Notes: generated from the sequence alone by a model not told the origin. DNA of 33,311 nucleotides from a virus (IMGVR_UViG_2778261498_000008:1-33311), one strand, 5' to 3'. Counted from the stretch's first letter, positions 1,354 through 17,899 are shown. Made by a program: numbers and translations.

Positions 1354-1454
1354 ACGCATGTTGCAATTCTCCAACGTCTGTATTAATGTTTATACAAATG
1401 AGTTTGATTTGGGGCATCCGTCGCAAGAAATACCCCAAACAGGGAGATTATCAC
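1354..1454. promoter_or_regulatory. Divergent C/cox switch region; 7-bp inverted repeat TTTGGGG (1408-1414) / CCCCAAA (1433-1439) is a candidate operator
   Basis: AT-rich ~100-bp spacer between divergently transcribed repressor and cox-like genes; the inverted repeat was read directly. Promoter hexamers not confidently assigned. Confidence 0.45.
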
Positions 1455-1781: not shown

Positions 1782-1799
1782 GATGCAGGGAGTTTTGAT

Positions 1800-2141
1800 A
1801 TGAAACAGCAACGTAATTCACGCTTTCGTAATGGTGCTGAACGCCACGCTAACCGTTTCGCTACCAGTGCATCACGCAGCAACATCCGCTACAGCCTGAG
1901 TGATACACACGCAACGCCGGATGGCTACCCAGTAAAACAAATCGGCGAGCATGCCTGGCTGATTGAGAAAGCTGGAATCGTGGTCCACAAATGCCCACGC
2001 AATCCGTTTACCGGAAACCGCATTTTTGCATTGAGCTGCGGCGACAATCAATTCGGGCAGGATTTCACATTATACGAAGCACTTCGCACGGTTGATCGTC
2101 TGCTTCGTGGGCAAAGTTTTATTAAACAGGCTGATTTATAA
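1800..2141 (+). CDS. Hypothetical early protein (orf78/B region of P2-like early operon)
   Basis: ATG ORF of 113 aa with AGGGAG upstream, in the early operon on the coding strand; no family recognised by eye. Confidence 0.5.
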   Translation: MKQQRNSRFRNGAERHANRFATSASRSNIRYSLSDTHATPDGYPVKQIGEHAWLIEKAGIVVHKCPRNPFTGNRIFALSCGDNQFGQDFTLYEALRTVDRLLRGQSFIKQADL

Positions 2142-2151
2142 CAGGTGCTTT

Positions 2152-2430
2152 ATGACCAAAGAGCATGCACAAGGTGTATTTATCCGTTTTATTGATTTTC
2201 GCGGTGAACTGTTATTACGCGCATCAGCCATTGACGGAGTTGTTCCATCCGAAAAAAACGCAGCTACTTACGTTTATCTGAACGGTACGCGCCTGACTGT
2301 GGAGCTTCCGTACCAGACCGTGCGAGAAATCATTAGCGAAGCTGAAAAGGCACGTCAGGTTAATGGCGATGAACCATATATCGAAATTATTTGTATGGAT
2401 TCAGAAGCTGAAATTCAGAAAGCAGATTAA
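2152..2430 (+). CDS. Hypothetical early protein
   Basis: 92-aa ORF from ATG 2152 (track ORF starts earlier at 2092 but overlaps the previous gene); tightly packed in the early operon. Confidence 0.45.
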   Translation: MTKEHAQGVFIRFIDFRGELLLRASAIDGVVPSEKNAATYVYLNGTRLTVELPYQTVREIISEAEKARQVNGDEPYIEIICMDSEAEIQKAD

Positions 2431-2441
2431 AGGGCGTTGCG

Positions 2442-2684
2442 ATGGGCAAAGAATATAAAACTCTCATTAACAAAGCACTTGAACGATTTTATTTTCGCTT
2501 AAGTGCATCAGGCGCTCATGCTGAACGTGCAGCCCGTGACTCATTGACCAGGGCAATCCGGAGTTTGTATGACGTCGCTTTTTACGCTGATGATCTGGAT
2601 GCACTTAACGAACTTTCCGAGCTGATCTGTGCCGCAGAATGCGGGGAACATATTGAACCGTATAAGCTGGGGAATATCGCATGA
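2442..2684 (+). CDS. Hypothetical early protein
   Basis: 80-aa ATG ORF, 11 bp after the previous stop, same strand. Confidence 0.5.
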   Translation: MGKEYKTLINKALERFYFRLSASGAHAERAARDSLTRAIRSLYDVAFYADDLDALNELSELICAAECGEHIEPYKLGNIA

Positions 2685-2794
2685 GTATATTTATCTCATG
2701 GCTTGTTCTGATTATTTCGGTGGCCTGCGCCATTGGGATTATGCGAATTATTCATTCAGTAAAAAAGATTGAACGCTTTTTCACTGGCGAATAA
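2681..2794 (+). CDS. Candidate small hydrophobic peptide (37 aa, MSIFISWLVLIISVACAIGIMRIIHSVKKIERFFTGE)
   Basis: ATG at 2681 overlaps the upstream stop as ATGA (translational coupling); single predicted transmembrane helix. Below the 60-aa track cutoff, found by eye. Confidence 0.3.
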   Translation: MSIFISWLVLIISVACAIGIMRIIHSVKKIERFFTGE

Positions 2795-2880
2795 CAGAGC
2801 AAATAAAACCACAGGTTAAATAAGAAAATGTAAAAACAATCCGCATTCGCGGAGGTATTCGCACACGCCAAGGAGGCGTA

Positions 2881-3084
2881 ATGGCAATTAAGCATTTTCC
2901 TGTCGTTCGTTTTACCTCCAGAGGACGTGAATACGAAGTCGATGAACGCCTGATTACCACAATCGACAAACACCGTTCAGAAAAGGATGCACATCACATC
3001 TATCTCACTGACGGCACTTACTTCTGCGCCACGAATGTGGTGCGGGTGAACCTTATCCGACAGGTACAGGAGTCACGCAGATGA
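2881..3084 (+). CDS. Hypothetical early protein (67 aa)
   Basis: ATG preceded by strong SD AAGGAGG; stop overlaps next start. Confidence 0.55.
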   Translation: MAIKHFPVVRFTSRGREYEVDERLITTIDKHRSEKDAHHIYLTDGTYFCATNVVRVNLIRQVQESRR

Positions 3085-3326
3085 CCATTCTGGACTATAT
3101 CGCCGCCAATCCGGGGTGTAGTGGTGGAGAAATCGCCGCAGCACTGAATACCCCAACCACAGCCATTAATGCGGAGTTACGCCGACTCTGGCGCAGCGGT
3201 TCAGTCATAAGAAAAGAACGCAAAACAGGCGGTCGCTTTTCTTACCAGATAAACCCGATGCCGTTCGGGTGCGGCAATCCACTTACCAACATGTTTAACC
3301 AGCTACTGAAGGAAGCCAGAGCATGA
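3081..3326 (+). CDS. Hypothetical early protein (81 aa), possible small DNA-binding protein
   Basis: ATGA-coupled to the upstream gene; no motif verified. Confidence 0.5.
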   Translation: MTILDYIAANPGCSGGEIAAALNTPTTAINAELRRLWRSGSVIRKERKTGGRFSYQINPMPFGCGNPLTNMFNQLLKEARA

Positions 3327-3622
3327 ACGCCATCAACCTCCAGGAATTACGCGAACTGGCGATTGACCTGCAACGAATGGCAACGCATCAAAAATTACTG
3401 GCGTTTCGCGCAATGCTCTCGCCGTCTGCCGTGCTGGCACTGCTGGATGAGCTGGAGCACGCCAGAACCATGTCTCCAGCCATTCGCCTGGCGCTTCATC
3501 ATGAAATCGCTGATTTCTGCGCACCACTGGGTTCGCCTGGTGAACCAGAAACGCCGGAAGCAATGCAACGAGAGCTACTGCAACGCATCGACAAGGTTTT
3601 TGATTTCTTCCTTAACCAGTAA
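3323..3622 (+). CDS. Hypothetical early protein (99 aa)
   Basis: ATGA-coupled ORF in the early operon; no family recognised. Confidence 0.5.
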   Translation: MNAINLQELRELAIDLQRMATHQKLLAFRAMLSPSAVLALLDELEHARTMSPAIRLALHHEIADFCAPLGSPGEPETPEAMQRELLQRIDKVFDFFLNQ

Positions 3623-3633
3623 AGGACCGCGAT

Positions 3634-3837
3634 ATGAACAAAAAGACCTGGTTTCGCGCATACATGTGGGCGCTGGTATGCGTCCTCGTTTCTCTCATTC
3701 TGTATGCAGGACTACTCCCCCGAATGATTTCATCAGACAGCTCCTTCCTGGTATTGCTGGGCATTTTCATTGCCATGCTGTACCCGGCAGGCGTTGTTCG
3801 CCTTTTCAGTAAGTACATCAAGGAAATCAAACAATGA
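3634..3837 (+). CDS. Small integral membrane protein (67 aa, two predicted TM helices)
   Basis: ATG 3634 with AAAGGA upstream; two hydrophobic stretches; stop overlaps the start of the next gene (ATGA at 3834-3837). Confidence 0.55.
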   Translation: MNKKTWFRAYMWALVCVLVSLILYAGLLPRMISSDSSFLVLLGIFIAMLYPAGVVRLFSKYIKEIKQ

Positions 3838-4664
3838 AGAAATTCAAACTCTTTCAGATTCTCCCGCTTTTTGCTGCCATCCTGCTGGTTGGTTGCGATC
3901 GCGTTGAGCCAGGTAATGTGGGCATCAAAGTCAACAAACTGGGCGACGACAAAGGCGTCGGTGAAGTGGTTGGCGTTGGCCGCTACTGGACAGGCTGGAA
4001 TACAGAGGTTTACATCTTCCCAACCTTCAAACAAATGAAGACCTACGATGAGCCGTTCAGCTTTCAGATGAGTGACGGCACAACCATCGGCTATCACATC
4101 GGTGTGGCCTACAAGGTTGATCCATCCAAAGTTACTACAGTGTTTCAGACCTACCGCAAAGGCGTGGATGACATTACCGACACTGACCTGCGCCAGAAGA
4201 TCGCCGACGCACTCAACCGACTGGCCAGTAAAATGACCACCGATAAATTTATCGACGGTGGCAAGTCTGAACTGCTGGATTCAGCACTTAAAGACATTCA
4301 GGCAGAAATGACACCTATCGGCATTCAGGTAATGAGCCTCTCTTATGTCGGTAAACCGGAATACCCACCAACCGTTATCGACAGCATTAATGCCAAAGTC
4401 ACGGCAAACCAGAAAACTCTGCAACGCGAACAGGAAGTCAAGCAGCGCGAAGCAGAAGCCAACATGCTACGCGCAGAAGCAGCCGGACAGGCTGATGCCA
4501 TTCGCACAAAAGCCCAGGCTGAAGCCGACGCCATTCGTTTGCGCGGTGAAGCTCTGCGCCAGAACCCCGGCGTTATGGAGCTGGAAGCTATCAACAAATG
4601 GAACGGCACGCTGCCGCAATACATGACCAGTAATACCGCTGTTCCGTTTGTTCCGGTGAAGTAA
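3834..4664 (+). CDS. Lipoprotein with SPFH/band-7-like domain and C-terminal Ala/Glu-rich coiled coil
   Basis: N-terminus MKKFKLFQILPLFAAILLVGC has a signal peptide and lipobox (LVGC); the C-terminal REAEANMLRAEAAGQADAIRTKAQAEADAIR tract resembles the EA-repeat coiled coil of HflK/HflC/flotillin-type proteins. Domain assignment is by pattern recognition only. Confidence 0.75.
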   Translation: MKKFKLFQILPLFAAILLVGCDRVEPGNVGIKVNKLGDDKGVGEVVGVGRYWTGWNTEVYIFPTFKQMKTYDEPFSFQMSDGTTIGYHIGVAYKVDPSKVTTVFQTYRKGVDDITDTDLRQKIADALNRLASKMTTDKFIDGGKSELLDSALKDIQAEMTPIGIQVMSLSYVGKPEYPPTVIDSINAKVTANQKTLQREQEVKQREAEANMLRAEAAGQADAIRTKAQAEADAIRLRGEALRQNPGVMELEAINKWNGTLPQYMTSNTAVPFVPVK

Positions 4665-4670
4665 TTAAAC

Positions 4671-4715
4671 CCGGCCAGTGGAAACCGCTGGCCGGAGCAG
4701 CATCAGGATTTTTTA
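4671..4715 (+). terminator. Hairpin CCGGCCAG/CTGGCCGG followed at a distance by a T6 run
   Basis: 8-bp perfect stem (4671-4678 / 4688-4695) directly after the lipoprotein stop; the T-run is ~13 nt downstream, so not a canonical intrinsic terminator. Confidence 0.4.
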
Positions 4716-4810
4716 GTATGCCGTTCTCACAAAAAAACCGCTTGCCATGCCGCAATCAGTCAGGTTACATTTCCGCTGCACCTCATAAAACGGGTGCCGG
4801 GATTTCCACC

Positions 4811-4852
4811 CCGCTGACTATACACGCGCACAACCGCGCCAGCGGTTTTTTT
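4811..4852 (+). terminator. GC-rich hairpin (CCGCTG...CAGCGG with inner GCGC stem) followed immediately by T7
   Basis: Read directly: stem 4811-4816 / 4840-4845, then TTTTTTT at 4846-4852. Looks like an intrinsic terminator or the 3' end of a small RNA. Confidence 0.5.
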
Positions 4853-5031
4853 GTGCGTACCGTATCGCCACGTCTTTTTCGCGTCAGAATTATGGTGGGG
4901 CGTATGGGGCCGACTTCGGTCGGGCCGGGTTCGTGTATAGCCGGTTGTGGAAACCCTGTACGTCTCACCACCCCGAGTTTTCCACCTCTGGATGGTGAGT
5001 TTTCAAAACTTACTATACACGAGGCCACACC

Positions 5032-5262
5032 ATGGCAAACCGCAAACAGCACCGCGCTATCGCGGAGCGTCGTCACATCCAGACTGAAATCAACCGCAGA
5101 CTTTCCCGCGCATTCCGCGTCGCTAAAATCATGCACATCAATATGCTGCATGAGCGTAGCTGCGAACTTTCAAACCTCTATTCATCCGCTGTTTTCAGCT
5201 ATCTGGCGGATGATCTGCGCGAGCTTCAGCAGCTCATCCAGCAGCAAAACAAACTCCATTAA
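5032..5262 (+). CDS. Hypothetical basic protein (76 aa)
   Basis: ATG ORF after the long structured intergenic region; Arg/Lys-rich N-terminus; function unknown. Confidence 0.5.
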   Translation: MANRKQHRAIAERRHIQTEINRRLSRAFRVAKIMHINMLHERSCELSNLYSSAVFSYLADDLRELQQLIQQQNKLH

Positions 5263-5334
5263 TTCCTGTTCCGGGCCTTTCCTGCACCTTGCGGCGGGAG
5301 GCCTTCGCACATCTGTAGTAAAGAGAATTGCAGC

Positions 5335-5724
5335 ATGATTGACGCTCATGACTTCACAAGATGGGTGCGCACACAGGACACCCGTCTGGCTCCCGTTCTT
5401 CAGGGATTATTTGATCTTTACATCCGTGGTCGTGACAACAGAGCACGCACTACAAAACCGGAGAATGCGGACACCCTTTATTTCACAGTAGACGACTGCT
5501 ACCGCGTGGACTTCACACCACACGGGCTGGCGTTGCACTGCCTGACACCACACGGCGAATCACTGCTGGCGTATTACGACTCCCCGGCCTCCGTATTCGC
5601 GGCAATGCTGGCGCATCGCACTGCTGGCGGGTGTGCCTCGCTGAGTGAATACACCGCTGAATTTAACCGCCTTTCCGCCATCTTCTCGCAGGAGTGGCAG
5701 CGCGTGACGGGATACCAGCCATGA
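5335..5724 (+). CDS. Hypothetical protein (129 aa) immediately upstream of, and coupled to, gene A
   Basis: Stop overlaps the A start (ATGA at 5721-5724). Confidence 0.5.
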   Translation: MIDAHDFTRWVRTQDTRLAPVLQGLFDLYIRGRDNRARTTKPENADTLYFTVDDCYRVDFTPHGLALHCLTPHGESLLAYYDSPASVFAAMLAHRTAGGCASLSEYTAEFNRLSAIFSQEWQRVTGYQP

Positions 5725-8528
5725 GCGAGTTTGCATGGAGCTGGAATGAACCACGGCCAGCCATTGATCCGGCCAGATTTACGGAGCGCAGGCAGGAAAC
5801 TGAAACCGACCTGCAACGCGCCATCCGTTACTACCTTGAGGCGGACAAAAGGGCACAGGAAGAACAGGAAGCGAAGGAAGAAGCCTTTTTCGCACAATCC
5901 GCCATGGGTAAAAAACTCATGGCATCCCTTGAGGAAGCCGGACAGCGTGAAAAGCTGGCACAGAGCATCATCAGTAAGCGCCGGGCAACAGAACAAGACC
6001 CGGTAGCCCGTGCCTTTGCCACACTAAAGGCACTACCTGTTTATCTGCGTGAACCACTGAGCCGCCACCTCTCTTTCCTGCGCAAAAAACAGGAAGCCGA
6101 TCGCCAGAAAGGTAAAAAGAGCTGGCAGGCGGAACGCTATGCACGCGGACCCCTGCGCAAAATATTCGAACGTCTGGATCGCACTGACGGACGCTGGCTG
6201 ACACCGGGTTATCGCTCCCTTGCCGGGCGCGAACGCCTGGACGATTTGCTTTACCTGCCGCAGCTCAACAAGCACCAGATACAGACGCTGGCCACCATGA
6301 CCGCGGCGATGTTCAGCAGCACCTTCGAAACACTCTGCGATGGCTTTGGTGCCAGAGATGGCGAGCTGACCATGGATGTAATGTTGAAGGCTTACCGGAT
6401 GCTGGCTCGTATCGCATTACGCCTGCACATCATGCCGCCACATTACGAAGCCCTGAACAAGAGCGAACCGGATACGGAACTGCTGCCGGGCGCAATCCTT
6501 CGCCTGACCTGTGCGGACTGGTGGAAACGCAAACTGTGGCTGTTACGTTGCGAGTGGAGAGAAGAACAACTCCGCGCCGCCTGTCTGGTTTCCAGAAAAA
6601 CATCGCCTTATCTGAGCCAGGACGCGTTAAGCGAGTTTCGCGCACAGCGCGAGAAAACACGCGATTTCCTGAAAAGTTTCATGCTGGAAAACGAAGACGG
6701 GTTCACGATTGATCTCGAGACAGTGTATTACGCGGGAGTAAGTAACCCGGTTCACCGTAAGGCAGAAATGATGGCCACCATGAAGGGGCTGGAACTTCTG
6801 GCCGAAGCCCGTGGTGACAAAGCGGTGTTTCTGACTGTCACCTGCCCGTCAAAATACCACGCAACAACGGAGAACGGTCATCCGAACCCCAAATGGAACG
6901 GGGCCACCATGCGCGACTCCAGCGACTACCTGGTTAACACGTTTTTTGCGGCGGTCCGCAAAAAACTGAACCGCGACGGCCTGCGCTGGTATGGCATCCG
7001 CACGGTGGAGCCTCACCATGACGGCACCGTACACTGGCATATGATGGTCTTTGCCCATCCGGAAGAAATCGACACCATTGTGTCCCACACCCGCGATATT
7101 GCCATTCAGGAAGATCGTCACGAGCTGGGCGATGATATTACTCCGCGCTTTAAGGCGGAGTATGTAGACGGCTCAAAAGGCACGCCAACCAGCTACATCG
7201 CCACCTACATCGGAAAGAACCTGGACAGCCGCGCCGCGGATGGCATCGACCCGAAAACGGGCAAACCACGCGTTGACCACGAAACCGGAAAATCAATGGC
7301 CGAGAGCGTGGAGCGCGCCATCGGCTGGGCGCGCCTTCACCGGGTCCGCCAGTTCCAGTTCTTTGGCATCCCCTCCCGTCAGGTGTGGCGTGAACTCCGC
7401 CGCCTTGCCAGCCAGATGGCACGCAACCCGGAAGGCCCGCAACGGCTGAAGGATGACGCAATGGATGCGGTACTCGCTGCCGCTGATGCCGGATGTTTTG
7501 CCACCTATATAGAGAAACAGGGCGGCGTACTTGTTCCACGCAAGGACTACCTGATTCGCACCGCCTACGACCTCGCCGATGAGCTGAACGATTACGGCGA
7601 ACAGAGCGTACAGATTTACGGGATCTGGTCACCACTCATCGGGGAATCCTCCCGTGTGTGCACGCATCCGGATAACTGGAAGCTGGTAAGACGTAAACCG
7701 GAAGCGGAAGACAGCGCCCGCGAAAATGGTTTTGACCTTCAGGGCGGCCCTGCCGCCCCTTGGACTCGTGGCAATAACTGTCCCCGTGTACAGGAAACGG
7801 ACAACAACGGGACAGAACAGCCGGAAGAACGGTCAGCACCGTGGCCGCAGCTCCCTGACGGCGTTGAAGTGAACGAATGGATGCGCTCACTGAAACGGCA
7901 CGAACGCCGGGCGCTGATGCGTTCGCTTCGGCTTCGTGACAAACAGGCAAAAAACAGCAGTGATGAAATGCAGAGCTGGACACAGAGCCGCAAACAGCAG
8001 CGGCCTTTGCCTGATAACCACGAATTACTCGCTAAAGAATGGCGGGAATCTGCCGAATCTCTCGGCCTGCATATCGGTGAACAGCAGATGCAGCACCTGT
8101 TACGGGGCGGCAGCCTGTACGTTGACGGCAGCATCATTGCACCGCAGGGATTTGAAATTGTACGCAAACCGGATACCCGCCCGGACAGCCGAATCACGCA
8201 GCTCTGGCAGCGCCTGAGCCGTAATCACGGCGTAAGCAGCACAGAGATCCGCCATAACCCGGTCGCCAGCTATCTGGAACAACTGGGGGCATCAGACCCC
8301 GAAGCCGCCGCACGTCTGGCATCCACACTTCAGCAGGACCAGAACACCATGAAAACCCCCGTTACCGTGCTTTCTGACATGTTGCGCGCCATCCGTGACG
8401 CAGAGCACGCACAGAGAATCAGTGAAACCACTGAGCGCGCCCACCGCAAAGCAGACCTGCTGCGGGGTAGCCTGACCAGTGGAAACAAAAAAACAGACAG
8501 AAACGGGATTCACAAATCCCGTAAATGA
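5721..8528 (+). CDS. A: Rolling-circle replication initiation endonuclease (P2 gpA family)
   Basis: Contains an HUH-type metal-binding motif (HWHMMVFAHP) and a tandem-tyrosine segment (SYIATYIGKN) typical of gpA-type nickases; sits after the early operon as in P2. ATG 5721 chosen over the upstream in-frame track start (5694). Confidence 0.9.
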   Translation: MSEFAWSWNEPRPAIDPARFTERRQETETDLQRAIRYYLEADKRAQEEQEAKEEAFFAQSAMGKKLMASLEEAGQREKLAQSIISKRRATEQDPVARAFATLKALPVYLREPLSRHLSFLRKKQEADRQKGKKSWQAERYARGPLRKIFERLDRTDGRWLTPGYRSLAGRERLDDLLYLPQLNKHQIQTLATMTAAMFSSTFETLCDGFGARDGELTMDVMLKAYRMLARIALRLHIMPPHYEALNKSEPDTELLPGAILRLTCADWWKRKLWLLRCEWREEQLRAACLVSRKTSPYLSQDALSEFRAQREKTRDFLKSFMLENEDGFTIDLETVYYAGVSNPVHRKAEMMATMKGLELLAEARGDKAVFLTVTCPSKYHATTENGHPNPKWNGATMRDSSDYLVNTFFAAVRKKLNRDGLRWYGIRTVEPHHDGTVHWHMMVFAHPEEIDTIVSHTRDIAIQEDRHELGDDITPRFKAEYVDGSKGTPTSYIATYIGKNLDSRAADGIDPKTGKPRVDHETGKSMAESVERAIGWARLHRVRQFQFFGIPSRQVWRELRRLASQMARNPEGPQRLKDDAMDAVLAAADAGCFATYIEKQGGVLVPRKDYLIRTAYDLADELNDYGEQSVQIYGIWSPLIGESSRVCTHPDNWKLVRRKPEAEDSARENGFDLQGGPAAPWTRGNNCPRVQETDNNGTEQPEERSAPWPQLPDGVEVNEWMRSLKRHERRALMRSLRLRDKQAKNSSDEMQSWTQSRKQQRPLPDNHELLAKEWRESAESLGLHIGEQQMQHLLRGGSLYVDGSIIAPQGFEIVRKPDTRPDSRITQLWQRLSRNHGVSSTEIRHNPVASYLEQLGASDPEAAARLASTLQQDQNTMKTPVTVLSDMLRAIRDAEHAQRISETTERAHRKADLLRGSLTSGNKKTDRNGIHKSRK

Positions 8529-8601
8529 GCAAAAAACGTGCCGCGATATATGAAGCGCGCACAAAACAGGCAAAAGCGGGATTTAAAAATCCTGTAAACG
8601 A
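8504..8601. repeat. Two copies of a ~25-bp dyad element (CGGGATTcacaaATCCCGTAAATGA at 8504-8528; CGGGATTtaaaaATCCTGTAAACGA at 8577-8601); candidate parC-like centromere/operator
   Basis: Read directly; copies are 73 bp apart, straddle the A stop codon and lie just upstream of the parM-like gene. Only two copies, so the centromere assignment is tentative. Confidence 0.35.
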
Positions 8602-8629
8602 TTAATTAATCAACATAAGGAAAAGCGAC

Positions 8630-9589
8630 ATGAAAATTCACATCGACGACGGCTCCACCAACATCAAGCTGGCATGGACTGAGAACGGCGAACGCCGCAA
8701 CGCCATCAGCCCGAACAGCTTCAAGTCGGAATGGTCTGCGCCGTTCGGTGGCACGCAGCCCGCGAACTACATGCTTGATGGCGTGCGCTATGGTTTTGAT
8801 CCGGTCAGCGATCGCTTTGTCCAGACGACCGACACGCAATACCAATACAGCGATGTGAATGTCATTGCCATTCATCACGCGCTGGTCAAATCAGGCATCA
8901 CGCCACAGGAGGTGGATGTGGTTGTCACCCTGCCACTGAGCGAGTATTTCGACACAAACGCACAGCCGGACATGGCCAACATCAACCGCAAAAAAGCGAA
9001 CGTTATGCGCCCGGTGGAGTACCAGAACGGCGAAGCATTCACTATCCGTAACGTGCGGGTTATGCCTGAATCCATTCCGGCTGGCTTTAAGGCACTGGCT
9101 GACATGAGTCCGTTTGAATCCCTGCTGATTGTGGATTTGGGCGGAACCACGCTGGATGTGGCAAAAGTTCAGGGGCAACTGGCAGGTATCAGCCAGGTGT
9201 TTTGCGATCCACACGTAGGCGTTTCTCTGATGGCCGATGCCGTACTGTCGGTGATGGCCACTAACGGTATGCGCACCAGTCACCACATCGCCAATACCAT
9301 TATCGAACATCGCCATGATGAAGCCTGGCTGCGCCAGCACATCCACAATGACGCGCATTACGCCAGCCTGATGGCGGTTATTCGTGAAAAGGAAGAAACA
9401 CTGAAACAACGCGTGATCCGCGCGCTGGCGGGTTTTTCGGGTTACGGGCGGGTGATGGTTGTCGGTGGCGGGGCGGAGATTGTGGCACCCGCTATCCGCG
9501 AAGCCTGCGGAGTTAATGCGAATTTCATCGCGGACGGGGTGCCACAGTTTGCTCTGGTTAATGGGCTGTACGCAATGGACAAGGAGTAA
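8630..9589 (+). CDS. parM: Actin-like segregation ATPase, ParM/StbA family
   Basis: N-terminus MKIHIDDGSTNIKLAW...ISPNSFK...YSDVNVIAIHHAL and later VMPESIPAG, LIVDLGGTTLDV and VMVVGGGAE closely parallel plasmid R1 ParM as recalled; AAGGAAAAG SD upstream. Confidence 0.85.
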   Translation: MKIHIDDGSTNIKLAWTENGERRNAISPNSFKSEWSAPFGGTQPANYMLDGVRYGFDPVSDRFVQTTDTQYQYSDVNVIAIHHALVKSGITPQEVDVVVTLPLSEYFDTNAQPDMANINRKKANVMRPVEYQNGEAFTIRNVRVMPESIPAGFKALADMSPFESLLIVDLGGTTLDVAKVQGQLAGISQVFCDPHVGVSLMADAVLSVMATNGMRTSHHIANTIIEHRHDEAWLRQHIHNDAHYASLMAVIREKEETLKQRVIRALAGFSGYGRVMVVGGGAEIVAPAIREACGVNANFIADGVPQFALVNGLYAMDKE

Positions 9590-9593
9590 ACCA

Positions 9594-9905
9594 ATGACGA
9601 CTCCAACCAGACGGATAAGTTTCTATCTGAAGCCCGCCGCCGTCAAGAACGAAGGCGAAGCATGCGCCTGGCTGGACAGCCTTACACCAGAAGCCCGCAA
9701 AAGCGGCCAACGCGTGGCTTTTCTGGCCGGGCTGGCACTTCTGAAAATGAATCCAGCAGAGGCTTACCGACTGGCTGCATGGGCTGACGATGAGGCGTTA
9801 TCGGTGACACAAACCAGGACAGAACGCCCCGTGTCACAGCCAGTACCAACCACACAGATAACCAGTCAGATGGCAGGGAATATCCGGGCATTATTTCCTG
9901 AATGA
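9594..9905 (+). CDS. parR: ParR/StbB-like centromere-binding adaptor
   Basis: 4 bp after the parM stop with AAGGAG SD; product shares the R1 ParR pattern as recalled (RRISFYLKP..., LDS, AFLAGLALL, C-terminal IRALFPE versus R1 ILRSLFPKE). Confidence 0.65.
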   Translation: MTTPTRRISFYLKPAAVKNEGEACAWLDSLTPEARKSGQRVAFLAGLALLKMNPAEAYRLAAWADDEALSVTQTRTERPVSQPVPTTQITSQMAGNIRALFPE

Positions 9906-9965
9906 CGAATTTGACGGCTTTTAATTTTATCGGGGTGCACTGTCGCCCCGCGCGAGGAAAACACG

Positions 9966-10490
9966 ATGAAAAAATACGAATACATGCTAATGAAAGAAGC
10001 ACTGCGGGCTGGTCTGGCTCCCTGTCCTGTATCCGTAGAAGCTGTTGTTGGGAACACGATTTTCCGAACGCTGCGAAATCGCGTATCCGTGAAGATGATT
10101 CACCAACCACCCAAATCTACCAGCATGATCTATCTGCCGCTGCCCGAGGCTATCAAACTTATGCGTTCGCTGAAATTTGCGATTTGGATGCAGACACAAC
10201 TCAACAAAGCGGTGCAAAACACCTTCGTTAAGAAACTGATGCCGGAGCTTGCTGCCAGATGTGCAAAATGTACCAGACCCGCACTTCAATTTGATCTGTC
10301 ATTGATTCAACAAGCTACGGAGGCAGAACTGTACCGCCTGTCACCTCTCCATGATGCTCACACGGAAGCCTCAGAAATGTTCCGGCTCATGTTTCAATTT
10401 AATTTTGCCGTTCGACGCACACGCATTCAGGTCAATCGCATGATGCAGGCGCAGGAAGAGCTGACGCAACACAAAGGAGGCAACCAGTGA
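9966..10490 (+). CDS. Hypothetical protein (174 aa), accessory
   Basis: ATG 9966 with AGGAAA upstream; no recognisable family by eye. Confidence 0.5.
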   Translation: MKKYEYMLMKEALRAGLAPCPVSVEAVVGNTIFRTLRNRVSVKMIHQPPKSTSMIYLPLPEAIKLMRSLKFAIWMQTQLNKAVQNTFVKKLMPELAARCAKCTRPALQFDLSLIQQATEAELYRLSPLHDAHTEASEMFRLMFQFNFAVRRTRIQVNRMMQAQEELTQHKGGNQ

Positions 10491-10662
10491 GCAAAATTGA
10501 CTATCAGGCATTACGCGAGGCGGCACAAAACTATCAATCGACGCTGGCGTGGTATGAGGTTGACGCGGGCTAGTTTTGCCGCAAGGATAATTCGTTTCAG
10601 CGGGTGATTTTTTGCGCTATCATTCCGGCAGTGGTTCACGATTATTGGCAGGAAAGGCAATT

Positions 10663-11256
10663 ATGAGCAGTAAAAAAAATAAAATAACATCTATGGCCGC
10701 AGCGCTGGCGGTGGCTCTCGCCCCTGTTCCTGCCAGTAGCATTGTGCATCATGACTTATCAATCTCCCGGCACAGTACGTCTACGCTATCCCTCCAGGAC
10801 GTAAAGGATTCTGTGGCATACCTTCCTATTGATGAGGCCACCAGTTATATGCTTAACCTGGCTGATAGGATGAAGACACACAGGGCAAACCTTCGCATCG
10901 AATGGGAAGAAAAGCAGATCCCTATTATTCTGAAAAATCAGAAAAAAGAGACTCAGGAAGGGTTTGAAAGCCTTTTCCGTCATATTGCGGTATGTGCAAG
11001 TTTTGTCGAGGCTGCAAGGGTTGCGCTGAAAAGCGTACCTGAAAGTAACGCGGAACTGAGAAAAGAGATTGTCGCTTTTGCTCGTTCCGCTGCGACGCTC
11101 CGCTATACGATTGAAGATATTTTATCCTTCATTGAAAGCACGCATGTGCCGAAGAAAACTTCAGATGCTGATCTGGGTGTTACCGCCGATCAGGTTCGCG
11201 CACTTATCCGCAGTGAACATAAAAAGCTGGGCCTTAAAGATCCAACGTTCCATTAA
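10663..11256 (+). CDS. Hypothetical protein (197 aa) with signal-peptide-like N-terminus; putative partner of the downstream toxin homologue
   Basis: ATG 10663 preceded by AGGAAAGG; N-terminus MSSKKNKITSMAAALAVALAPVPASS has a positive n-region, hydrophobic core and a VPA-S cleavage-like site. The track ORF starts 51 nt earlier without an SD. The region is visibly more AT-rich than the phage backbone. Confidence 0.5.
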   Translation: MSSKKNKITSMAAALAVALAPVPASSIVHHDLSISRHSTSTLSLQDVKDSVAYLPIDEATSYMLNLADRMKTHRANLRIEWEEKQIPIILKNQKKETQEGFESLFRHIAVCASFVEAARVALKSVPESNAELRKEIVAFARSAATLRYTIEDILSFIESTHVPKKTSDADLGVTADQVRALIRSEHKKLGLKDPTFH

Positions 11257-11265
11257 GGCAGGGCC

Positions 11266-11646
11266 ATGATTAAAGTCTCTGTCCACAATGACATAGAACT
11301 CCCCGCAGTTGCTCGTAAATATGCACATGCTTTGCAGTCATGGAAAAACGGCGGATCTTTACCCTCAGTCTTTGGCAACGAAGGGCAGTGGGAAGATAGC
11401 GGGCGTCTTCGTGATTCTTTTGTTTTTAAGATTCACATTCGTTTACCTGATGAACAGCCGTGGCCTGCAAAGCTACCTGCCGCCTCGCGTAAATCAAACA
11501 GTTATCTTGTTTACTCCCGCCATTTCTTATATCCAGATAAGTATCAGCTAATCAGCATTATGACACCCAATGCGCATGAGTTAGCCCGTACATCCTACAT
11601 GGCAGAAATTGAGCGCAGAGCAGAAGAGTTCCAGTCTTCTTTTTGA
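11266..11646 (+). CDS. YafO-family toxin homologue (ribosome-dependent mRNA interferase family)
   Basis: 126-aa product matches E. coli YafO as recalled in several blocks: LPSVFGNEG vs LPDIFGRD; HIRLPDEQPWPAKLPAASRKSNSYLVYSRH vs HIHLANENNPFPPQLRQFSRTNDEAHLVYCQG; C-terminal LISIMTPNAHELAR...AEEF vs LLIAILKPEPHKLAR...AEAF. 9 bp after the upstream gene. Confidence 0.7.
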   Translation: MIKVSVHNDIELPAVARKYAHALQSWKNGGSLPSVFGNEGQWEDSGRLRDSFVFKIHIRLPDEQPWPAKLPAASRKSNSYLVYSRHFLYPDKYQLISIMTPNAHELARTSYMAEIERRAEEFQSSF

Positions 11647-11684
11647 GTTTTGCGACGACTATCTATCAATCCCTTACTAATCTG

Positions 11685-11718
11685 AAAAGCTGCCTTTTGA
11701 AGGCGGCTTTTCTTTCTT
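11685..11718 (+). terminator. Intrinsic terminator (AAAAGCTGCC / GGCGGCTTTT stem, T-rich tail)
   Basis: 10-bp stem (one G-U pair) with 7-nt loop followed by CTTTCTT; flanked by A-run and T-run so could act in both directions. Confidence 0.6.
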
Positions 11719-11737
11719 CCTGGCCTTCTTTCTCTGT

Positions 11738-11764
11738 TGCACAATAGTGCACAAATTTGCACAA
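11738..11764. repeat. Three direct TGCACAA repeats phased at exactly 10 bp (11738, 11748, 11758)
   Basis: Read directly; helical phasing suggests a protein-binding array in the region expected to hold cos and packaging signals. Confidence 0.4.
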
Positions 11765-12188
11765 TTTTTTTGAACGACTTTTTACCCTTCCGGCCCGCAT
11801 GGCGGCTGGATCCGTCAAGGATCCGTGCGCGCACAAAAAAACGCGCTTTTTCTGCGCGCAGGTGACGGGGGAACAGCCCGCGTTTCTGGGGGTAAATAGC
11901 GTTCCCTTAACGATGTCGCAGCGACACGACAGAATGGCCGTATTTCTCACGCTGAGCGTGAAAAATACGTGAGGGATTCTGGTTTGATGGGGTGAAAGGT
12001 AAGGCCGTCAAAATCGCACTGAGGCGGCGAGAACATGCAGTCAGCGCAGTGGGATTGCGTAAGAATCTGACCGTCGATGATGGCAATAAGCAGGAAAGCA
12101 TCGTGAAATTATCTGACTGATACAGGAGCTGGAGAGTCGGGGCATAAATTTTTTATGCCCCGGCGAAGCAGCAGACAAGCGAAGCGCG

Positions 12189-13235
12189 TCAGGATGTGGG
12201 CTGGGTATCTAACAGTGCGTAAGGGTTAAAGCGGATCACCTCTTCGCCAAGCCAGTCATTGATGTGCTTCATGGCCTCCATGACGGGCATCAGCTCGTTA
12301 ATTGCGTAAACCCGCGCGGCCTTCTCCACATCACCAAACGCACTTTTTTCGCCCGGCATCGCCCCCATCAGTTGCGGCGGAACGCGGTGCGCAGCCAGCA
12401 CATCATCACGGGATGCCGCCTTAACATTCATGAACTCATCCTTTGCGGTGATCTGCTGGAACGGCAAAATTTGCACCCCCTCTTTGCCCCCGTTGGGCGC
12501 ATGAATGAGCACGTTTTTAAACGCACCACCACCACGTGCCCCCTGTAGCGTTTCTTTCAGGGAGTCCATGCTTTCGCGGTTTACCTGCGCTGCACCGATG
12601 TAGATGATGCACCCGGCGTGGGATCCGTTGTCGTAGTACAGTTTTCTGAACATGTCCGCCGAATGAGAAAGGCTGGCCGAGAGTAATGCGCCAAGATATT
12701 CCGGCATGCCGTAGATTTCCTGGTTAATATCCGGATTCATCAGGTGGCACACTTTACCAGGGCGAAACTGAAACGCATCCTTGCCATCCTGCACATACCA
12801 CCATGATTCAAGATCGCTTCCGCGTCGCATGTATTTCGCCAGGGCGTGCCGTAATTTAAGCGGTTCGCCGAGCATATTGCTCCGAAGCTCAAGGAATGCG
12901 TTACCGAACACAAACCAGTCCAGCGCCAGCGCCGAGAAATCCTGCCGGGAAAGCAGCGGGTGCGGAATATAGCAGCCGAGCAATACATTGCGCTTAAAGT
13001 AAAGCGCAGACTGATGCCAGGACGTTTGCCGGGCAGCTCTTGCCAGACCGTACCAGTCCACCGGGGTTTCATACCACCGCCCGTTATCAGCACAGTACAT
13101 ATTGTCCAGCAGGTCATGCCCGGTCAGGCGATAAGGACCATCAAATGTGAATGCACTGAGCGATGATTCTTTCCTGAGCGCATCAGCGAGATCAATGCGT
13201 GAACTCATGCGCACTTTTTTATTTTTTCTGCTCAT
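12189..13235 (-). CDS. Q: Portal protein (P2 gpQ family)
   Basis: 348-aa product, leftward operon with the large terminase as in P2; length and position match gpQ. Confidence 0.9.
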   Translation of the reverse strand: MSRKNKKVRMSSRIDLADALRKESSLSAFTFDGPYRLTGHDLLDNMYCADNGRWYETPVDWYGLARAARQTSWHQSALYFKRNVLLGCYIPHPLLSRQDFSALALDWFVFGNAFLELRSNMLGEPLKLRHALAKYMRRGSDLESWWYVQDGKDAFQFRPGKVCHLMNPDINQEIYGMPEYLGALLSASLSHSADMFRKLYYDNGSHAGCIIYIGAAQVNRESMDSLKETLQGARGGGAFKNVLIHAPNGGKEGVQILPFQQITAKDEFMNVKAASRDDVLAAHRVPPQLMGAMPGEKSAFGDVEKAARVYAINELMPVMEAMKHINDWLGEEVIRFNPYALLDTQPTS

Positions 13236-14986
13236 CAGAACTCCATAACCGTGAAACGCTCGTTTTCTCCTTCGCCGCCAATCGGTTCATTAATGACAGC
13301 AAGCATGGTTGCCCACGCAAGGTCGCCGTGGCTGATCCCCCTCGCTCGGTCCGTTTCGTAAGTGATAAAGCCGCCCGGTGTTTTCACCTTACGTACGGCG
13401 TTAAAGGCCGCGACCAGCTCGCGTTCGGCACGATCGTATTCCCACCGCCCGGCACGCATTATTTGCAGCATTTTCAGTACCAGCGACCGTTTTGATGACA
13501 GCGTGAAGGTGTACGGAATAGCAGCAGGGAAAAACCGTTTCACTATCTGATAAACGGCATCCCCGTGCCCGCCAGTCGCATCAATGCCGATGTGTTCCAC
13601 GTTGTAGCGACACGTGAACTCTTCAATGACTCTGGCCTGTTCTTCAAACTCCAGCCCCTGAACGCGTCGCGTCTCCACCGTTCGAAAACGGCCACCAGGA
13701 ACAGCCGGAGGAACCACCACGGACACCGCGCCGCTGTCGCCGTTTCCACTGCTGCCGTTTGCGTCATACCCAATCCATACCGGACGATTCCCCATCGGGC
13801 GGGGAGCAAAAGGTTTCCAGTCTTTCCAGTCGTCGTATCCGTCAACACCGCAGCCAATCAGGATATTCAGGTTAAATGCCGATTCCCCTTCGCGGACAAA
13901 CTCACACATATAGAGATTGCGGAACTCGTCTTCGGTGTTTTCATCACGAATTTCATCAATATCGGTGTGTTTCCAGCCGTGATTAACCACATCTTCCAGC
14001 GTGACAATTTGCCGCCACGTCCGGTCGGGGCAGATAAGTCCGTTATGCAGCGTTTTCCAGTCCACAGAAAAACGCTGGCGTTTATGCGCGGCCTTTTTCT
14101 CGTTCCAGCGGTCGCCGTTCCAATAGACGTATGCCTCGTGCGTTTCGGTGGATGGCGTGGAGAAGTAGGTGCGCCGCAGTCCGCTGAGGGTTGCCATAGC
14201 GCCAGCCACCTTGCGCAGTTCAGCAAAGCGACTGACCCAGAAAAATTCATCAAAATAAAAATTGCCTGTGTAGGACTGTGCCGTCGCAGCAGAAGTACCG
14301 AGAAAATGCAGTTCTGCGCCGTTGGAGAGGATGATTTTATCGCCCCCTTTCAGCTCCACATCAACTTCAGCCGCGGCCTTCTGAATAATGCTTTTAAACT
14401 GGAACGCCTGACGACGCGACGCAGACAAAAAAATCTGGTTACGCTGGTAAGGTTGTGCCACATCGTCACGCAGCGCCATCAGCAGTGCTTCCTGTGCAAA
14501 ATACCAGGTCGCCCCAATCTGTCGGGATTTCAGGATCATCCTGTTACGTATCCCGGCTTCACTGCAAAGGGTCAGGGAGTCAAACCAGCCCCGCTGATGC
14601 CACTCCAGCCTGCTGATGATTTTTTCCCGCAGTGCGGCAATCTGCTCCGGCGTGAAATGATTTTTAAGTTTTTTCGCCCGGCCTTTCTTTCCTGTGGCCG
14701 TCGCATCCGGCTGGCCATCATGCAGTTTTTTAAGCTGCCGGGTCAGCAGGTCTATTTCCTTAAAGTCACCACCTGTTTTATTCTGTTTTTCAGTAAGCTG
14801 GATGAGGCGCGCATCGATGGACTGCGTGACACGCTGCACGGGTGGCGTTTCATCCCACTGGTCGCGTTTTTTCCACGCATAAATCGTGTTCGGGTTTATT
14901 CCCATCAGACGTGATATTTCTGCGGGCGGATAACCCTGCCAGTAAAGTTGCCGCGCACGCTGGCGCACAAAAGCGTCCTGAATCAT
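13235..14986 (-). CDS. P: Terminase large subunit / ATPase (P2 gpP family)
   Basis: 583-aa product upstream of the portal on the same strand; length and position match P2 gpP. Confidence 0.9.
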   Translation of the reverse strand: MIQDAFVRQRARQLYWQGYPPAEISRLMGINPNTIYAWKKRDQWDETPPVQRVTQSIDARLIQLTEKQNKTGGDFKEIDLLTRQLKKLHDGQPDATATGKKGRAKKLKNHFTPEQIAALREKIISRLEWHQRGWFDSLTLCSEAGIRNRMILKSRQIGATWYFAQEALLMALRDDVAQPYQRNQIFLSASRRQAFQFKSIIQKAAAEVDVELKGGDKIILSNGAELHFLGTSAATAQSYTGNFYFDEFFWVSRFAELRKVAGAMATLSGLRRTYFSTPSTETHEAYVYWNGDRWNEKKAAHKRQRFSVDWKTLHNGLICPDRTWRQIVTLEDVVNHGWKHTDIDEIRDENTEDEFRNLYMCEFVREGESAFNLNILIGCGVDGYDDWKDWKPFAPRPMGNRPVWIGYDANGSSGNGDSGAVSVVVPPAVPGGRFRTVETRRVQGLEFEEQARVIEEFTCRYNVEHIGIDATGGHGDAVYQIVKRFFPAAIPYTFTLSSKRSLVLKMLQIMRAGRWEYDRAERELVAAFNAVRKVKTPGGFITYETDRARGISHGDLAWATMLAVINEPIGGEGENERFTVMEF

Positions 14987-15140
14987 TGCTCCCCCTGAGT
15001 AATTACAGGAAGATTACCCGCGCGCGAAACCGTTCTCCTTAACCCCCTGTTCTGGCCGTTTCCTTACAACAAAAGACCTTTGTATCAGCCTGTTACGCTT
15101 TGCCATCATGACTGAAGAACCAGTCAGAGGGGCAAAAACT

Positions 15141-15977
15141 ATGGCTAATGAAAAAAAGACATCCCGCAAAAAGTTTCGCGTGGCTGTCTCCGGATCAACT
15201 GTTGATGGCCGTGAAATCAGTCCGGTGCATCTGCGTGAAGCCGCCGAGAACTTCAACCCGGATGTTTACGCTGCCCGCGTGAACGTTGAGCACTATCTCT
15301 CGCCATGCCCGTCAAGCGAATTTTCCGCAATGGGCGATGTCACCGCACTGAGTACGGAAGACATTACGGAAGGTCCGCTGGCCGGACGTACTGCGCTGTA
15401 TGCAGAAATCGAACCGACCGAGCGCATGAAGCAGCTTGTCGCGGACGGCAAGAAAATCTATTCCAGTATCGAACTGCACCCGCAGTTCTCCGTTAACGGG
15501 CGCGCCTATCTGGTCGGGCTGGCGATGACCGACACCCCGGCAAGCCTGGGCACTGAGCGCCTGAAATTCACGGCACAGCAACGTCAGGCGGTGATGACGT
15601 TCAACAGTGTCCAGGGTGAAGCACCGCTCATTTCCGAAGCCATCGAGTCTGAAATCATCGAAATGGCAGAACAACGCCAGGAAGAAGGCACCCAGTGGTT
15701 TAACCGCGTAATGGGGATTATTGGTCGTGGCCGCAAAGCGGATGACGCCAGTTTCTCCCGTATTCAGGAAGCGGTGGAAGGCGTCGCAACGTCACAGGCC
15801 GACATTATCGACCGTTTTAATGTGCTGGAAACCCGCCATCAGCAGGACCGCCAGAAAATCACGTCACTGACCACAGAGCTGACAGCACTGAAGGAAAAAC
15901 TGCGCACGCAGGACGGCGATCCGCAGAACCGGTTCACCGCAACGGGCGCAGCCTCCGACCAACTGGCTGACTTCTGA
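15141..15977 (+). CDS. O: Capsid scaffolding protein (P2 gpO family)
   Basis: Product matches P2 gpO as recalled (FRVAVSGSTVDGREIS..., YLVGLAMTDTPASLGTE). ATG 15141 with AGAGGGG SD preferred over 15108. Confidence 0.85.
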   Translation: MANEKKTSRKKFRVAVSGSTVDGREISPVHLREAAENFNPDVYAARVNVEHYLSPCPSSEFSAMGDVTALSTEDITEGPLAGRTALYAEIEPTERMKQLVADGKKIYSSIELHPQFSVNGRAYLVGLAMTDTPASLGTERLKFTAQQRQAVMTFNSVQGEAPLISEAIESEIIEMAEQRQEEGTQWFNRVMGIIGRGRKADDASFSRIQEAVEGVATSQADIIDRFNVLETRHQQDRQKITSLTTELTALKEKLRTQDGDPQNRFTATGAASDQLADF

Positions 15978-16000
15978 TAAGACAAAGGAGCAAATTTTTT

Positions 16001-17053
16001 ATGAATCTGGTGATGTCAGATATTACCCGCAACAAGCTGGGTTGCTATATGGCGCAGCAGGCGTCGCTTAACAATATCCCGGTTTCTGCGCTGGTATCGC
16101 GATTTACCGTCAATCCATCGGTACAACAGCGTTTTGAAAACGCTTCAAAGGAAAGTACCGAATTTACGAAAAGAATTAACGTAATCGGTGTAACTGACCA
16201 GAAAGGCGAAAAAGTTCTCCTGGACACCACCGGGCCGATTGCGCGCACGAATACCAGTTATGACGGCACAGATCGCCGTAATCCGATTAACGCTGTCGAT
16301 ATGAAGGCTCGTCAGTACCAGTGTGAACAGGTGAACTACGACACCTTTATTTCGTATCCGAAGCTTGATGCCTGGGCGGCTCACAGCGATTTTCAGTCGC
16401 GCATCAGCACACAGATTGCCCGGCAGGTGGCGCTTGACCGCATCATGATCGGCTTTAACGGCACATCACACGCGGAAAAATCCAATTTCAGCACCAACAA
16501 GCTGCTTCAGGACGTTAACGTGGGCTGGCTGGAGCACATCAGAACCGATGCCAGTGAACGCGTAATGAATGACGTGACGCTGACTTCCCGCAACATGGAC
16601 AACACCGTGGCGCACGCGGGTAAGTATGCGAACGCTGATGCACTCGTACAGGACGCGCGCTCATCCCTGCTGGATGAATGGCACAAGGAAGCAGACGACC
16701 TCGTGGTGATTATGGGGCGCAACCTGTTTAACTCGCTGCGTCTGCCCGTTCTGAACAGCATCAGCGGCCAGAATCCCAATGCGGAATTACTCGCCGGACA
16801 GCTCATCCTGTCATCGCGCACCATTGGCGGGCTGGATGTATTCCTTGCGCCGTTCTTCCCGGATGCAACGATGCTGATTACCTCATTCAACAACCTGTCA
16901 ATTTACTGGCAGAGAGGCTCAATGCGTCGCCTGATGAAAGACGAGCCGGAATACAACCGTATCGCCACTTACCAGTCCATCAATGACGCTTATGTCGTTG
17001 AAGACTATGGCAAGTGCGCGATGGTCACTGGCCTGAAGTTCGCCGACAGCTAA
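16001..17053 (+). CDS. N: Major capsid protein (P2 gpN family)
   Basis: 350-aa product following the scaffold gene; shares blocks with P2 gpN as recalled (FTVNPSVQQ, IMIGFNGTSHAEKS, VGWLEHIR, YVVEDYG). Confidence 0.9.
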   Translation: MNLVMSDITRNKLGCYMAQQASLNNIPVSALVSRFTVNPSVQQRFENASKESTEFTKRINVIGVTDQKGEKVLLDTTGPIARTNTSYDGTDRRNPINAVDMKARQYQCEQVNYDTFISYPKLDAWAAHSDFQSRISTQIARQVALDRIMIGFNGTSHAEKSNFSTNKLLQDVNVGWLEHIRTDASERVMNDVTLTSRNMDNTVAHAGKYANADALVQDARSSLLDEWHKEADDLVVIMGRNLFNSLRLPVLNSISGQNPNAELLAGQLILSSRTIGGLDVFLAPFFPDATMLITSFNNLSIYWQRGSMRRLMKDEPEYNRIATYQSINDAYVVEDYGKCAMVTGLKFADS

Positions 17054-17098
17054 TCAACTCACGGCGGGCATCATGCCCGCCTGTAACGGAGAGAAAGA

Positions 17099-17899
17099 AT
17101 GATTACCCCTGCACAGCAACACTGGCAGAACGTGATGGCGCAGCGCGCAGGCCGGGCGAATGAAGGCGTGGATCACGCCGCACGTACCGCGCATGAAGAG
17201 GTGCTGTATCGTCTGCGTCTGGCACAGGCCCGACTTAAGGGCGTACAGGCCAGAAGCGCCAAAGCCGCCATCAAAAAAGAGTTGTTACCGGACTTTTCCG
17301 GCTGGATTGAAGGAACGCTGGAGGCTGACGGCGGGCAGCAGGATGAGGTGATTGCCACGCTGATGGTGTGGGCGATTGACTGTGGCGATCTTCCGCTGGC
17401 ATTGCGTATTGGTGCGTATGTGGTCCGTCACAACCTCATCATGCCGGATAACTTTGGCCGTACTGCTGCCACAGTGCTGACCGAAGAAATCTGCAACCCG
17501 GTACTGACGCAGGCCGGGACGGATGCCGACGCGGATTTGTCCGCCTTTATCGAACCACTGGACACCCTCCGGGAGATTGTCACCGACCAGGATATGCCGG
17601 ACGAAGTACGCGCCAAATTATGCAAGGCGTGCGCCTTTGCCCGCCGTGGCCTGAGCGATGCGGACAGCATGGCCCTGTCACTGAAGCTGCTGCGCGAAGC
17701 GATGCACCTGAACCCGAACGCAGGTGTGAAACGCGAGATTGCAACCCTTTCCCGCGCCCTGAAAAAAGCCGATTCCGCAGCCGCCCCAGATGACGCCAGC
17801 GCACAGCAGGCGCAGGACGAAAGCAGCAAAAGTAAAAAGACAACGCGGAAGCCTGCAACACGAAAAACCACCGCGACGCAGAAGGCGAAGCGCGTTTAA
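17099..17899 (+). CDS. M: Terminase small (endonuclease) subunit (P2 gpM family)
   Basis: Position after N and length consistent with gpM; Ala-rich C-terminal tail. Confidence 0.85.
   Translation: MITPAQQHWQNVMAQRAGRANEGVDHAARTAHEEVLYRLRLAQARLKGVQARSAKAAIKKELLPDFSGWIEGTLEADGGQQDEVIATLMVWAIDCGDLPLALRIGAYVVRHNLIMPDNFGRTAATVLTEEICNPVLTQAGTDADADLSAFIEPLDTLREIVTDQDMPDEVRAKLCKACAFARRGLSDADSMALSLKLLREAMHLNPNAGVKREIATLSRALKKADSAAAPDDASAQQAQDESSKSKKTTRKPATRKTTATQKAKRV

Follow-up and report, generated by a model that had tools for sequence, protein, structure and literature searches.

Gene order around the spacer

The DNA analyzed here, a viral stretch of 33,311 nucleotides (hereinafter the window), is an Escherichia coli prophage of the P88-like group (Xuanwuvirus, Peduoviridae) in the P2 family. 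Phage P88 is 98.6% identical to it over 11738-12400, and this region is matched in 1377 of 5426 complete E. coli genomes, i.e., about one-quarter of them. The spacer of interest has a variable cargo hotspot on its left and the portal gene on its right; in P2, this position is held by cos (Table 1). In P2, too, cos adjoins a cargo hotspot, which was described by Rousset et al. (PMC9122126). As in P2 and 186, the gpA gene is on the plus strand, and the portal and terminase genes run on the minus strand toward the spacer, the cargo in the window extending up to 11646. The right edge of the hotspot is marked by the intrinsic terminator of the last cargo unit (-19.1 kcal/mol, z -5.2). Likeness to other P88-like phages starts abruptly at 11728-11738, that is, at the first of the repeats discussed below, with variable cargo leftward of it.

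The same element encodes a cognate P2-type terminase, comprising gpM and a gpP with an N-terminal helix-turn-helix (residues 6-63, window 14800-14986 on the minus strand; PF06056, HTH_23); a putative helix-turn-helix is also noted in the record of 186 for its gpP homologue. The portal, terminase, scaffold, capsid and replication ORFs (5694-8528 and 12189-17899) are all open, and full-length family matches were obtained for all of them except the scaffold and the capsid. The sequence-only reading had taken this stretch for the cos-proximal region of a P2-family prophage; the position relative to the P2 cos bears this out, and all the motifs it listed are present where it placed them.

Table 1. 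Coordinates of genes and sequence features in and around the spacer, from left to right in the window
Feature	Position	Strand	Remarks
gpA-like replication protein (gpA homologue)	5694-8528	+	
Cargo hotspot between gpA and cos	8630-11646		Several plus-strand ORFs, YafO-family toxin last
YafO toxin gene	11266-11646		Closes the cargo genes
Intrinsic terminator	11684-11712	+	Ends YafO cargo transcription unit; 13-bp stem and T-run; outside cos
Distal recognition array (predicted)	11738-11771		TGCACAA at 11738, 11748 and 11758, then T7 run
Inner spacer between distal and proximal motifs	11772-11829		Variable sequence, constant length
Imperfect dyad	11826-11860		TGCGCGCACAAAAA / TTTTTCTGCGCGCA; abuts predicted nick site
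Proximal motif	11830-11840		CGCACAAAAAA; -36 from CGGGG run, 72 bp after third distal repeat
Predicted nicking/cohesive-end segment	11859-11879		Core GGTGACGGGGGAACAGCCC at 11861-11879
Right flank of common module	11880-11897		GCGTTTCTGGGGGTAAAT; satellite likeness stops at ~11897-11903
Palindrome GTCGC-A-GCGAC	11915-11925		GTCGCAGCGAC; lineage-specific
Inverted repeat, 15-nt arms	11939-11969	-	Core TCACGC-TGA-GCGTGA (TCACGCTGAGCGTGA) at 11947
Cross-lineage conserved block	12004-12027		125-165 bp right of cos; degenerate in window
Stem-loop	12138-12162	-	CGGGGCATAAA / TTTATGCCCCG; 27 nt past portal stop codon
Portal stop codon	12189-12191	-	
Portal (P2 gpQ homologue)	12189-13235	-	PF04860; annotated as portal in P88 and RefSeq E. 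coli genomes; reads toward cos
Terminase large subunit (P2 gpP homologue)	13235-14986	-	PF06056, PF03237, PF17289; 44% identical to P2 gpP
ORF at position of P88-annotated capsid scaffolding gene	15108-15977		
ORF at position of P2 capsid gene N	16001-17053		Assigned by position alone
Terminase small subunit (P2 gpM homologue)	17099-17899	+	PF05944, E 5.5e-37; 37% identical to P2 gpM

Other kinds of element were also considered for the spacer. An RNA gene or a small protein was rejected, Rfam giving no match (E up to 1) and the six ORFs of the spacer having no PHROG hit. A sigma-70 promoter at the repeats was likewise discarded, the promoter scan having returned no promoter-like site in the spacer.

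Conserved motifs and their sharing with a satellite

The three TGCACAA copies of the distal array start exactly 10 bp apart, at -128, -118 and -108 from the C of a CGGGG run further to the right. A search for TGCACAA-N3-TGCACAA-N3-TGCACAA with up to three mismatches finds this one match in the window as compared to 0.01 expected from shuffled sequences, placing the phased triplet far beyond chance. TGCACAA occurs five more times in the 33-kb window, three times on the plus and twice on the minus strand, which we estimate to be about the chance level for a 7-mer on both strands. Across an alignment of 31 distinct relatives, most of them retrieved with the 19-mer core as the search key, conservation is 0.90-0.99 at 11741-11770 (the array), 0.98 at 11831-11840 and 0.85-1.0 at 11851-11880, and it lies between 0.4 and 0.8 elsewhere; the score of the 19-mer itself is uninformative because it was the key by which most of the sequences were found. 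Three blocks are retained in Enterobacter phage phiT5282H (Novemvirus) and in Klebsiella phages from three other genera, namely the repeat triplet with its T-run, a fourth copy of the motif, TGCAC(A/G)AAAAA, at window position 11830, and GCGCGCAGGTGACGGGGG(A/G).

The proximal motif reads TGCACAAAAA in 30 of the 31 relatives and matches by position the TGCATTAAAACC of P2, 186 and P4, the CGCACAA of the window being an unusual T>C change. It overlaps the left arm of a dyad whose 14-nt arms (11826-11839 and 11847-11860; 93% complementary) surround runs of A7 and T5. Copies of TGCGCGCA at 11826 and 11853 make part of this dyad perfect because of the rare T>C change in the proximal motif; accordingly, the perfect TGCGCGCA dyad recurs in only 2 of the 31 relatives, as does TGCGCGCAC. 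GCGC[AT]GGTGA is present in all 31. Of the dyad listed in the sequence-only reading, two portions are conserved across lineages, namely the right arm, which reads GCGCGCA (11854-11860; -7 to -1), and the A-rich motif within the left arm.

The inner spacer varies in sequence at constant length. Within it, GGATCCG(T), i.e., GGATCCGT, is duplicated at 11808-11815 and 11819-11826. The GGATCCG duplication is found in 13 of the 31 relatives, and the satellite described below has unrelated sequence of equal length in its place. In the aligned region, 30 of the 31 have a GGATC at some place, and by eye it is the second copy (11819-11823) that recurs across lineages.

The sequence-only reading had not found the cohesive end of P2 in the window. 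Its exact sequence is indeed absent, but a predicted diverged homologue, the core GGTGACGGGGGAACAGCCC at 11861-11879, had been overlooked. This core is identical to the P2 cohesive end at 13 of 19 ungapped positions and to the phiRSA1 end as published at 11 of 18 (PMC5694545), a likeness that is without significance by itself. Smith-Waterman comparison of the P2, 186 and P4 cos cores with the whole window gave scores within the range of shuffled sequences. The core GGCGAGGCGGGGGAGC from Klebsiella phage 3LV2017 can be aligned to 11829-11885, scoring 37 as against at most 30 in shuffles, and this phage combines TGCACAA-type repeats with a P2-like core (GCGCGCA-GGCGAGGCGGGGGAGC). The predicted homology of the core to the P2 type rests on this intermediate and on position. 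The core of the window fits a GGYGWSG(C)GGGG type, for which P2 GGCGAGGCGGGGAAAGCAC, phiRSA1 GGTGAGGCGGGGTCCAAC and 3LV2017 GGCGAGGCGGGGGAGC may be compared, and the cohesive-end segment is kept in phiT5282H, the Klebsiella phages and the satellite. The predicted nick is ambiguous by 2 nt, falling at 11861 by the GGYGA motif and at 11859 by the distance from the repeats and the G-run. None of the public phage records and viral contigs inspected has ends at the predicted core.

To compare the layout across the family, we counted positions in 13 elements from the CGGGG run of the core. These elements were P2, 186, P4, phiCTX and phiRSA1, together with the window, P88, phiT5282H, four elements from Klebsiella and the E. 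coli satellite. Among these, the records of P2, 186 and phiCTX annotate cohesive ends, and those of phiRSA1 have been mapped experimentally (PMC5694545). Twelve of the 13 have a YGCA motif at each of the positions -118, -108 and -36, to within 1 bp, the exception being Kp4845-1 with a mismatched motif (TGCGTAA) at the middle position (-118); most carry an extra YGCA copy at -127 to -131. Between the motifs, the sequence varies freely. The motif differs from lineage to lineage in its 3' half: P2, 186, P4 and phiRSA1 have TGCAT, the P88 type and 3LV2017 have TGCACAA, and phiCTX has YGCAG(G/A). In both the P2 and the P88 types, the third distal repeat is 72 bp from the proximal motif; as this amounts to about seven helical turns, all four motif copies would face the same side of the helix.

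The same layout was evaluated in larger samples. Among 119 IMG/VR contigs holding the 19-mer, which represent the P88 cos type, all four motifs are exact in 76, and in 104 when A/G is allowed at one position; the four motifs span 133 nt, within 1 nt, in 104. A second sample comprised 120 contigs in which the P2 cohesive end is exact; the strict TGCAT pattern is present in 46 of them, and alignment of 16 of the non-matching contigs revealed the motifs with single-base variants. The GCACRA triplet is found in none of these 120 P2-type contigs as compared to 105 of the 119 P88-type contigs, in which it occurs once each, adjoining cos. Both cos types are found in E. coli prophages, and the sampled sets are unmixed.

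Two side observations concern these samples. Some IMG/VR contigs with the P2 cos type (L142, L156 and L169) have four TTGCATTA copies at 10-bp phasing in place of the three TGCAT copies at spacings of 12-13 and 10 bp, indicating that the copy number of the distal array varies. CP052639.1 (L014), deposited as a Klebsiella pneumoniae plasmid of 32,368 bp, is a P2-like, 3LV2017-type genome with a replication endonuclease gene, cos and portal, and probably represents a phage that was extrachromosomal or induced and whose sequence was then assembled as a plasmid.

The integrated satellite of E. coli KD602 (L134; NZ_CM145715 reverse complement, 128-12004), of about 12.7 kb, matches the window over 11738-11897 alone, with 80% identity. 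Its genes code for two integrases, an Icd-like protein, an 889-aa toprim primase, an Ogr/Delta zinc-finger protein, a 236-aa protein without a family match and a homologue of the P2-family major capsid protein (PF05125, 423 aa); no terminase, psu or sid is among its annotated genes. In the satellite, the TGCACAA copies and the proximal copy keep the four distances measured in the window; the core reads GGTGACGGGGGAACAGCAC. In the reciprocal search, the satellite was recovered in 52 of the 5426 complete E. coli genomes and matched P88-like prophages at L134 9001-9160/9166 only. This sharing delimits the module to about 160 bp. What the two share does not include the hairpin, either palindrome, the left dyad arm or the duplicated GGATCCG. 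Among the sequences compared here, P4 resembles P2 solely beside cos, and the two are described as having just a 55-bp cos core in common (PMC9122126, PMC9594776); the sharing between the satellite and the P88-like phages mirrors the relation between P4 and P2. Just upstream of the cos module of the satellite (L134 ~8470-8780), we also observed a dense field of GGTTACA/TGTAACC repeats that looks like the iteron field of a replication origin.

A predicted packaging module and its alternatives

Window positions 11738-11897 probably make up the cos packaging module of a temperate, P88-like phage of the P2 family, with predicted terminase-bound repeats and a predicted nicked core. Its parts would be the three TGCACAA copies, the spacer of fixed length, the fourth copy (C/TGCACAAAAAA) and, about 20 bp further and with GCGCGCA beside it, the G-rich core GGTGACGGGGGAACAGCCC. 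The repeats had already been ascribed to the packaging signal from the sequence alone, and their observed position and spacing, conserved in the relatives as well as in the satellite, support this. That the signal might differ from that of P2 turned out to hold in part: the sequence differs, but a different organization is not supported, a cohesive-end core being present and the motif layout agreeing with those of P2, 186, P4, phiCTX and phiRSA1 within 1-2 bp.

In the mechanism that we infer, the terminase would bind the four same-face repeats during lytic growth, the reader being gpM, the N-terminal helix-turn-helix of gpP, or both. Binding would bend or wrap the ~70-bp spacer and bring the gpP nuclease to the core, some 100 bp away from the distal array, where staggered nicks would produce 5' cohesive ends of ~19 nt, as in P2. 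Which genomes and satellites are matched to a terminase may be set by the 3' half of the repeat (CAA here and T in P2, 186 and P4). Across six phages with three motif types, a comparison that is confounded by phylogeny, no clean co-variation of the repeat motif with gpP N-termini or gpM was found. Longer flanks around the 55-bp P4 cos have been reported to increase cosmid transduction >1000-fold (PMC9594776), which fits a role for the distal repeats. Since the phased repeats ~100 bp away are conserved in addition to the core, our comparison suggests that the 55-bp P2/P4 core of the engineering literature may not be the whole signal; the P4/P2 cosmid papers contain no map of a minimal cos.

It is conceivable, though unlikely in our estimate, that the region is cos but that a host architectural protein of the IHF/Fis/HU kind bends the DNA at the repeats, with the terminase reading the core only. 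The lambda cosB has IHF between its terminase-binding sites, and in the window A/T runs lie beside the repeats; moreover, neither gpM nor the gpP helix-turn-helix co-varies demonstrably with the motif. A host factor, however, would be expected to keep one motif, and the TGCAT and TGCACAA types are both found in E. coli prophages, unmixed, with phiCTX differing again. Two motif types side by side in prophages of one species hence make a phage-encoded reader likelier than a host factor, and by eye the spacer is also without a good IHF consensus. We regard as distinctly improbable the proposal that the repeats have no packaging role and are instead a transcriptional operator or promoter element, or a conserved anchor for cargo exchange. 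The promoter scan was negative. In P2, the equivalent repeats overlap the upstream region of the promoter of the gene old. The location of the array exactly at the edge of the variable hotspot would suit an exchange anchor, as would the proposal by Rousset et al. that cargo exchange is driven by recombination at cos (PMC9122126). Yet the neighboring cargo varies in content and orientation while the distance of the array to the core is fixed to the base pair, and satellites retain the array despite different neighboring genes. Furthermore, the motif positions are conserved and the intervening bases have diverged, a pattern that suggests contact with a protein more than an anchor for recombination.

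The remaining alternative, to which we attach very little probability, is that the prophage is a decaying remnant with a non-working cos. The T>C change in the proximal motif, found in 2 of the 31 relatives, could be read in this way. Nevertheless, CGCACAA variants occur in the distal repeats of other lineages, the structural, terminase and replication ORFs examined are open, and P88, with its 98.6% identity over 11738-12400, is active and inducible.

Understood as a packaging module read by the phage terminase, the site is a divergent P2-family cos, with the same layout and a different sequence. Ziermann and Calendar reportedly recognized in 1990 a 55-bp conserved core common to P2, 186 and P4. 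Like the cos of these three, the site in the window is positioned by the portal gene, with a portal-terminase operon reading toward it and terminase genes of the same type, has a G-rich core that starts with GGYGA and is followed by a CGGGG run, and displays YGCA at -36 and, in phase, at -108, -118 and ~-128 to -131. P2 and P4 further resemble the P88 type in that the module is also carried by a satellite without a terminase. In contrast, the repeat motif is TGCACAA in the window as opposed to TGCAT(T/G) in P2, 186 and P4; the left flank has GCGCGCA and A/T runs in place of the CCGCCC...GGGCGG dyad of the P2 type; and cos is 328 bp from the portal stop as compared to 187 bp in the P2 type. The ends of P2, 186 and P4 are 19-nt 5' cohesive ends, whereas those of the window are predicted from its sequence.

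The GenBank record of the Pseudomonas phage phiCTX annotates repeats R4-R6 across cos; hence, repeats near a P2-family cos are not new in themselves. Its YGCAG(G/A) motifs lie at -117, -107, -45 and -36, and its proximal region aligns by eye with that of 3LV2017, the intermediate linking the window to P2. It differs from the window in the 3' half of the motif, its annotated cohesive end of 21 nt and its host. In lambda, cosB is made up of the sites R3-I1-R2-R1, with binding by the small terminase subunit gpNu1 and a bend made by IHF, and lambda and phage 21 differ in cosB specificity. The outline is comparable, with short motif copies by the nick site, one near and the rest ~100 bp off, and with lineage-specific motifs that could set packaging specificity. 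However, cosB is not homologous: the protein families are different, the repeats are found at the opposite side of the genome map, and the small subunit of the window belongs to PF05944 and not to the gpNu1 family, such that the resemblance is one of mechanism only. We found no report of repeat binding in any P2-family phage in the literature consulted, and no description of the P88-type core or repeats by text search of the searchable literature.

P88-like prophages are common, and their cargo hotspot is directly beside cos. The module limits of ~11738-11897 would indicate where cargo can be swapped without loss of packaging, and they offer a defined cassette for P88-type cosmids or for a packaging knock-out. 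They also provide a testable reason why P2-type and P88-type phages and satellites would not cross-package. More tentatively, we raise the possibility, to which we would not yet commit ourselves, that the phased YGCA array is a general and under-appreciated specificity element of the P2 family, comparable to cosB. Its 3' half (T, CAA or GRR) might then define classes of helpers and satellites, the P88 class having a dedicated satellite family with P4-like integrase, primase and Ogr/Delta genes and its own P2-family capsid gene.

Palindromes and hairpins on the portal side of cos

Several features that had drawn attention in the sequence-only reading lie to the right of the module. The palindrome GTCGCAGCGAC is intact in 7 of the 31 relatives and changed at its eighth position in 7 more (GTCGCAGAGAC where read). 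It folds weakly (-5.6 kcal/mol, z -1.8), is absent from other lineages and from the satellite, and is probably incidental. The inverted repeat at 11939-11969 folds on the minus strand into a 14-bp stem (-19.4 kcal/mol, z -6.2). Its core TCACGCTGAGCGTGA is intact in 9 of the 31, the variants retaining G-U pairs on the minus strand only, and the repeat is confined to the E. coli lineage, with neither the satellite nor other lineages having it. Possibly, the minus-strand transcript of the portal operon forms an RNA hairpin here, in its 3' region. The GGATCCG duplication and the two palindromes, which had been listed alongside the repeats, were therefore dropped as packaging elements, being lineage-specific, often broken and missing in the satellite that shares the module.

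The block at 12004-12027 has the form GCGCC-N9-10-GGCGC-TGAGGCG elsewhere, with 186 having GCGCCtcgtaatGGCGC at ~+62, and could act in the termination of packaging or of transcription. The stem-loop at 12138-12162, with arms of 11 nt (12138-12148 and 12152-12162), occupies the place of the annotated tQ of P2 and tW of 186, where other lineages carry a hairpin that is rich in GC and unrelated to it. It lacks the makeup of a Rho-independent terminator, as no U-tract follows the stem, the minus strand continuing with GACUCUCC; the terminator scan made no call there. In relatives of the PhiR44_2 type, a 614-bp insertion after window position 12192 (L257 728-1252) separates the hairpin from the portal stop. 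This insertion, present in many E. coli relatives, carries a 174-aa ORF and its own bidirectional terminator, making its site a second slot for cargo, located between cos and the portal gene.
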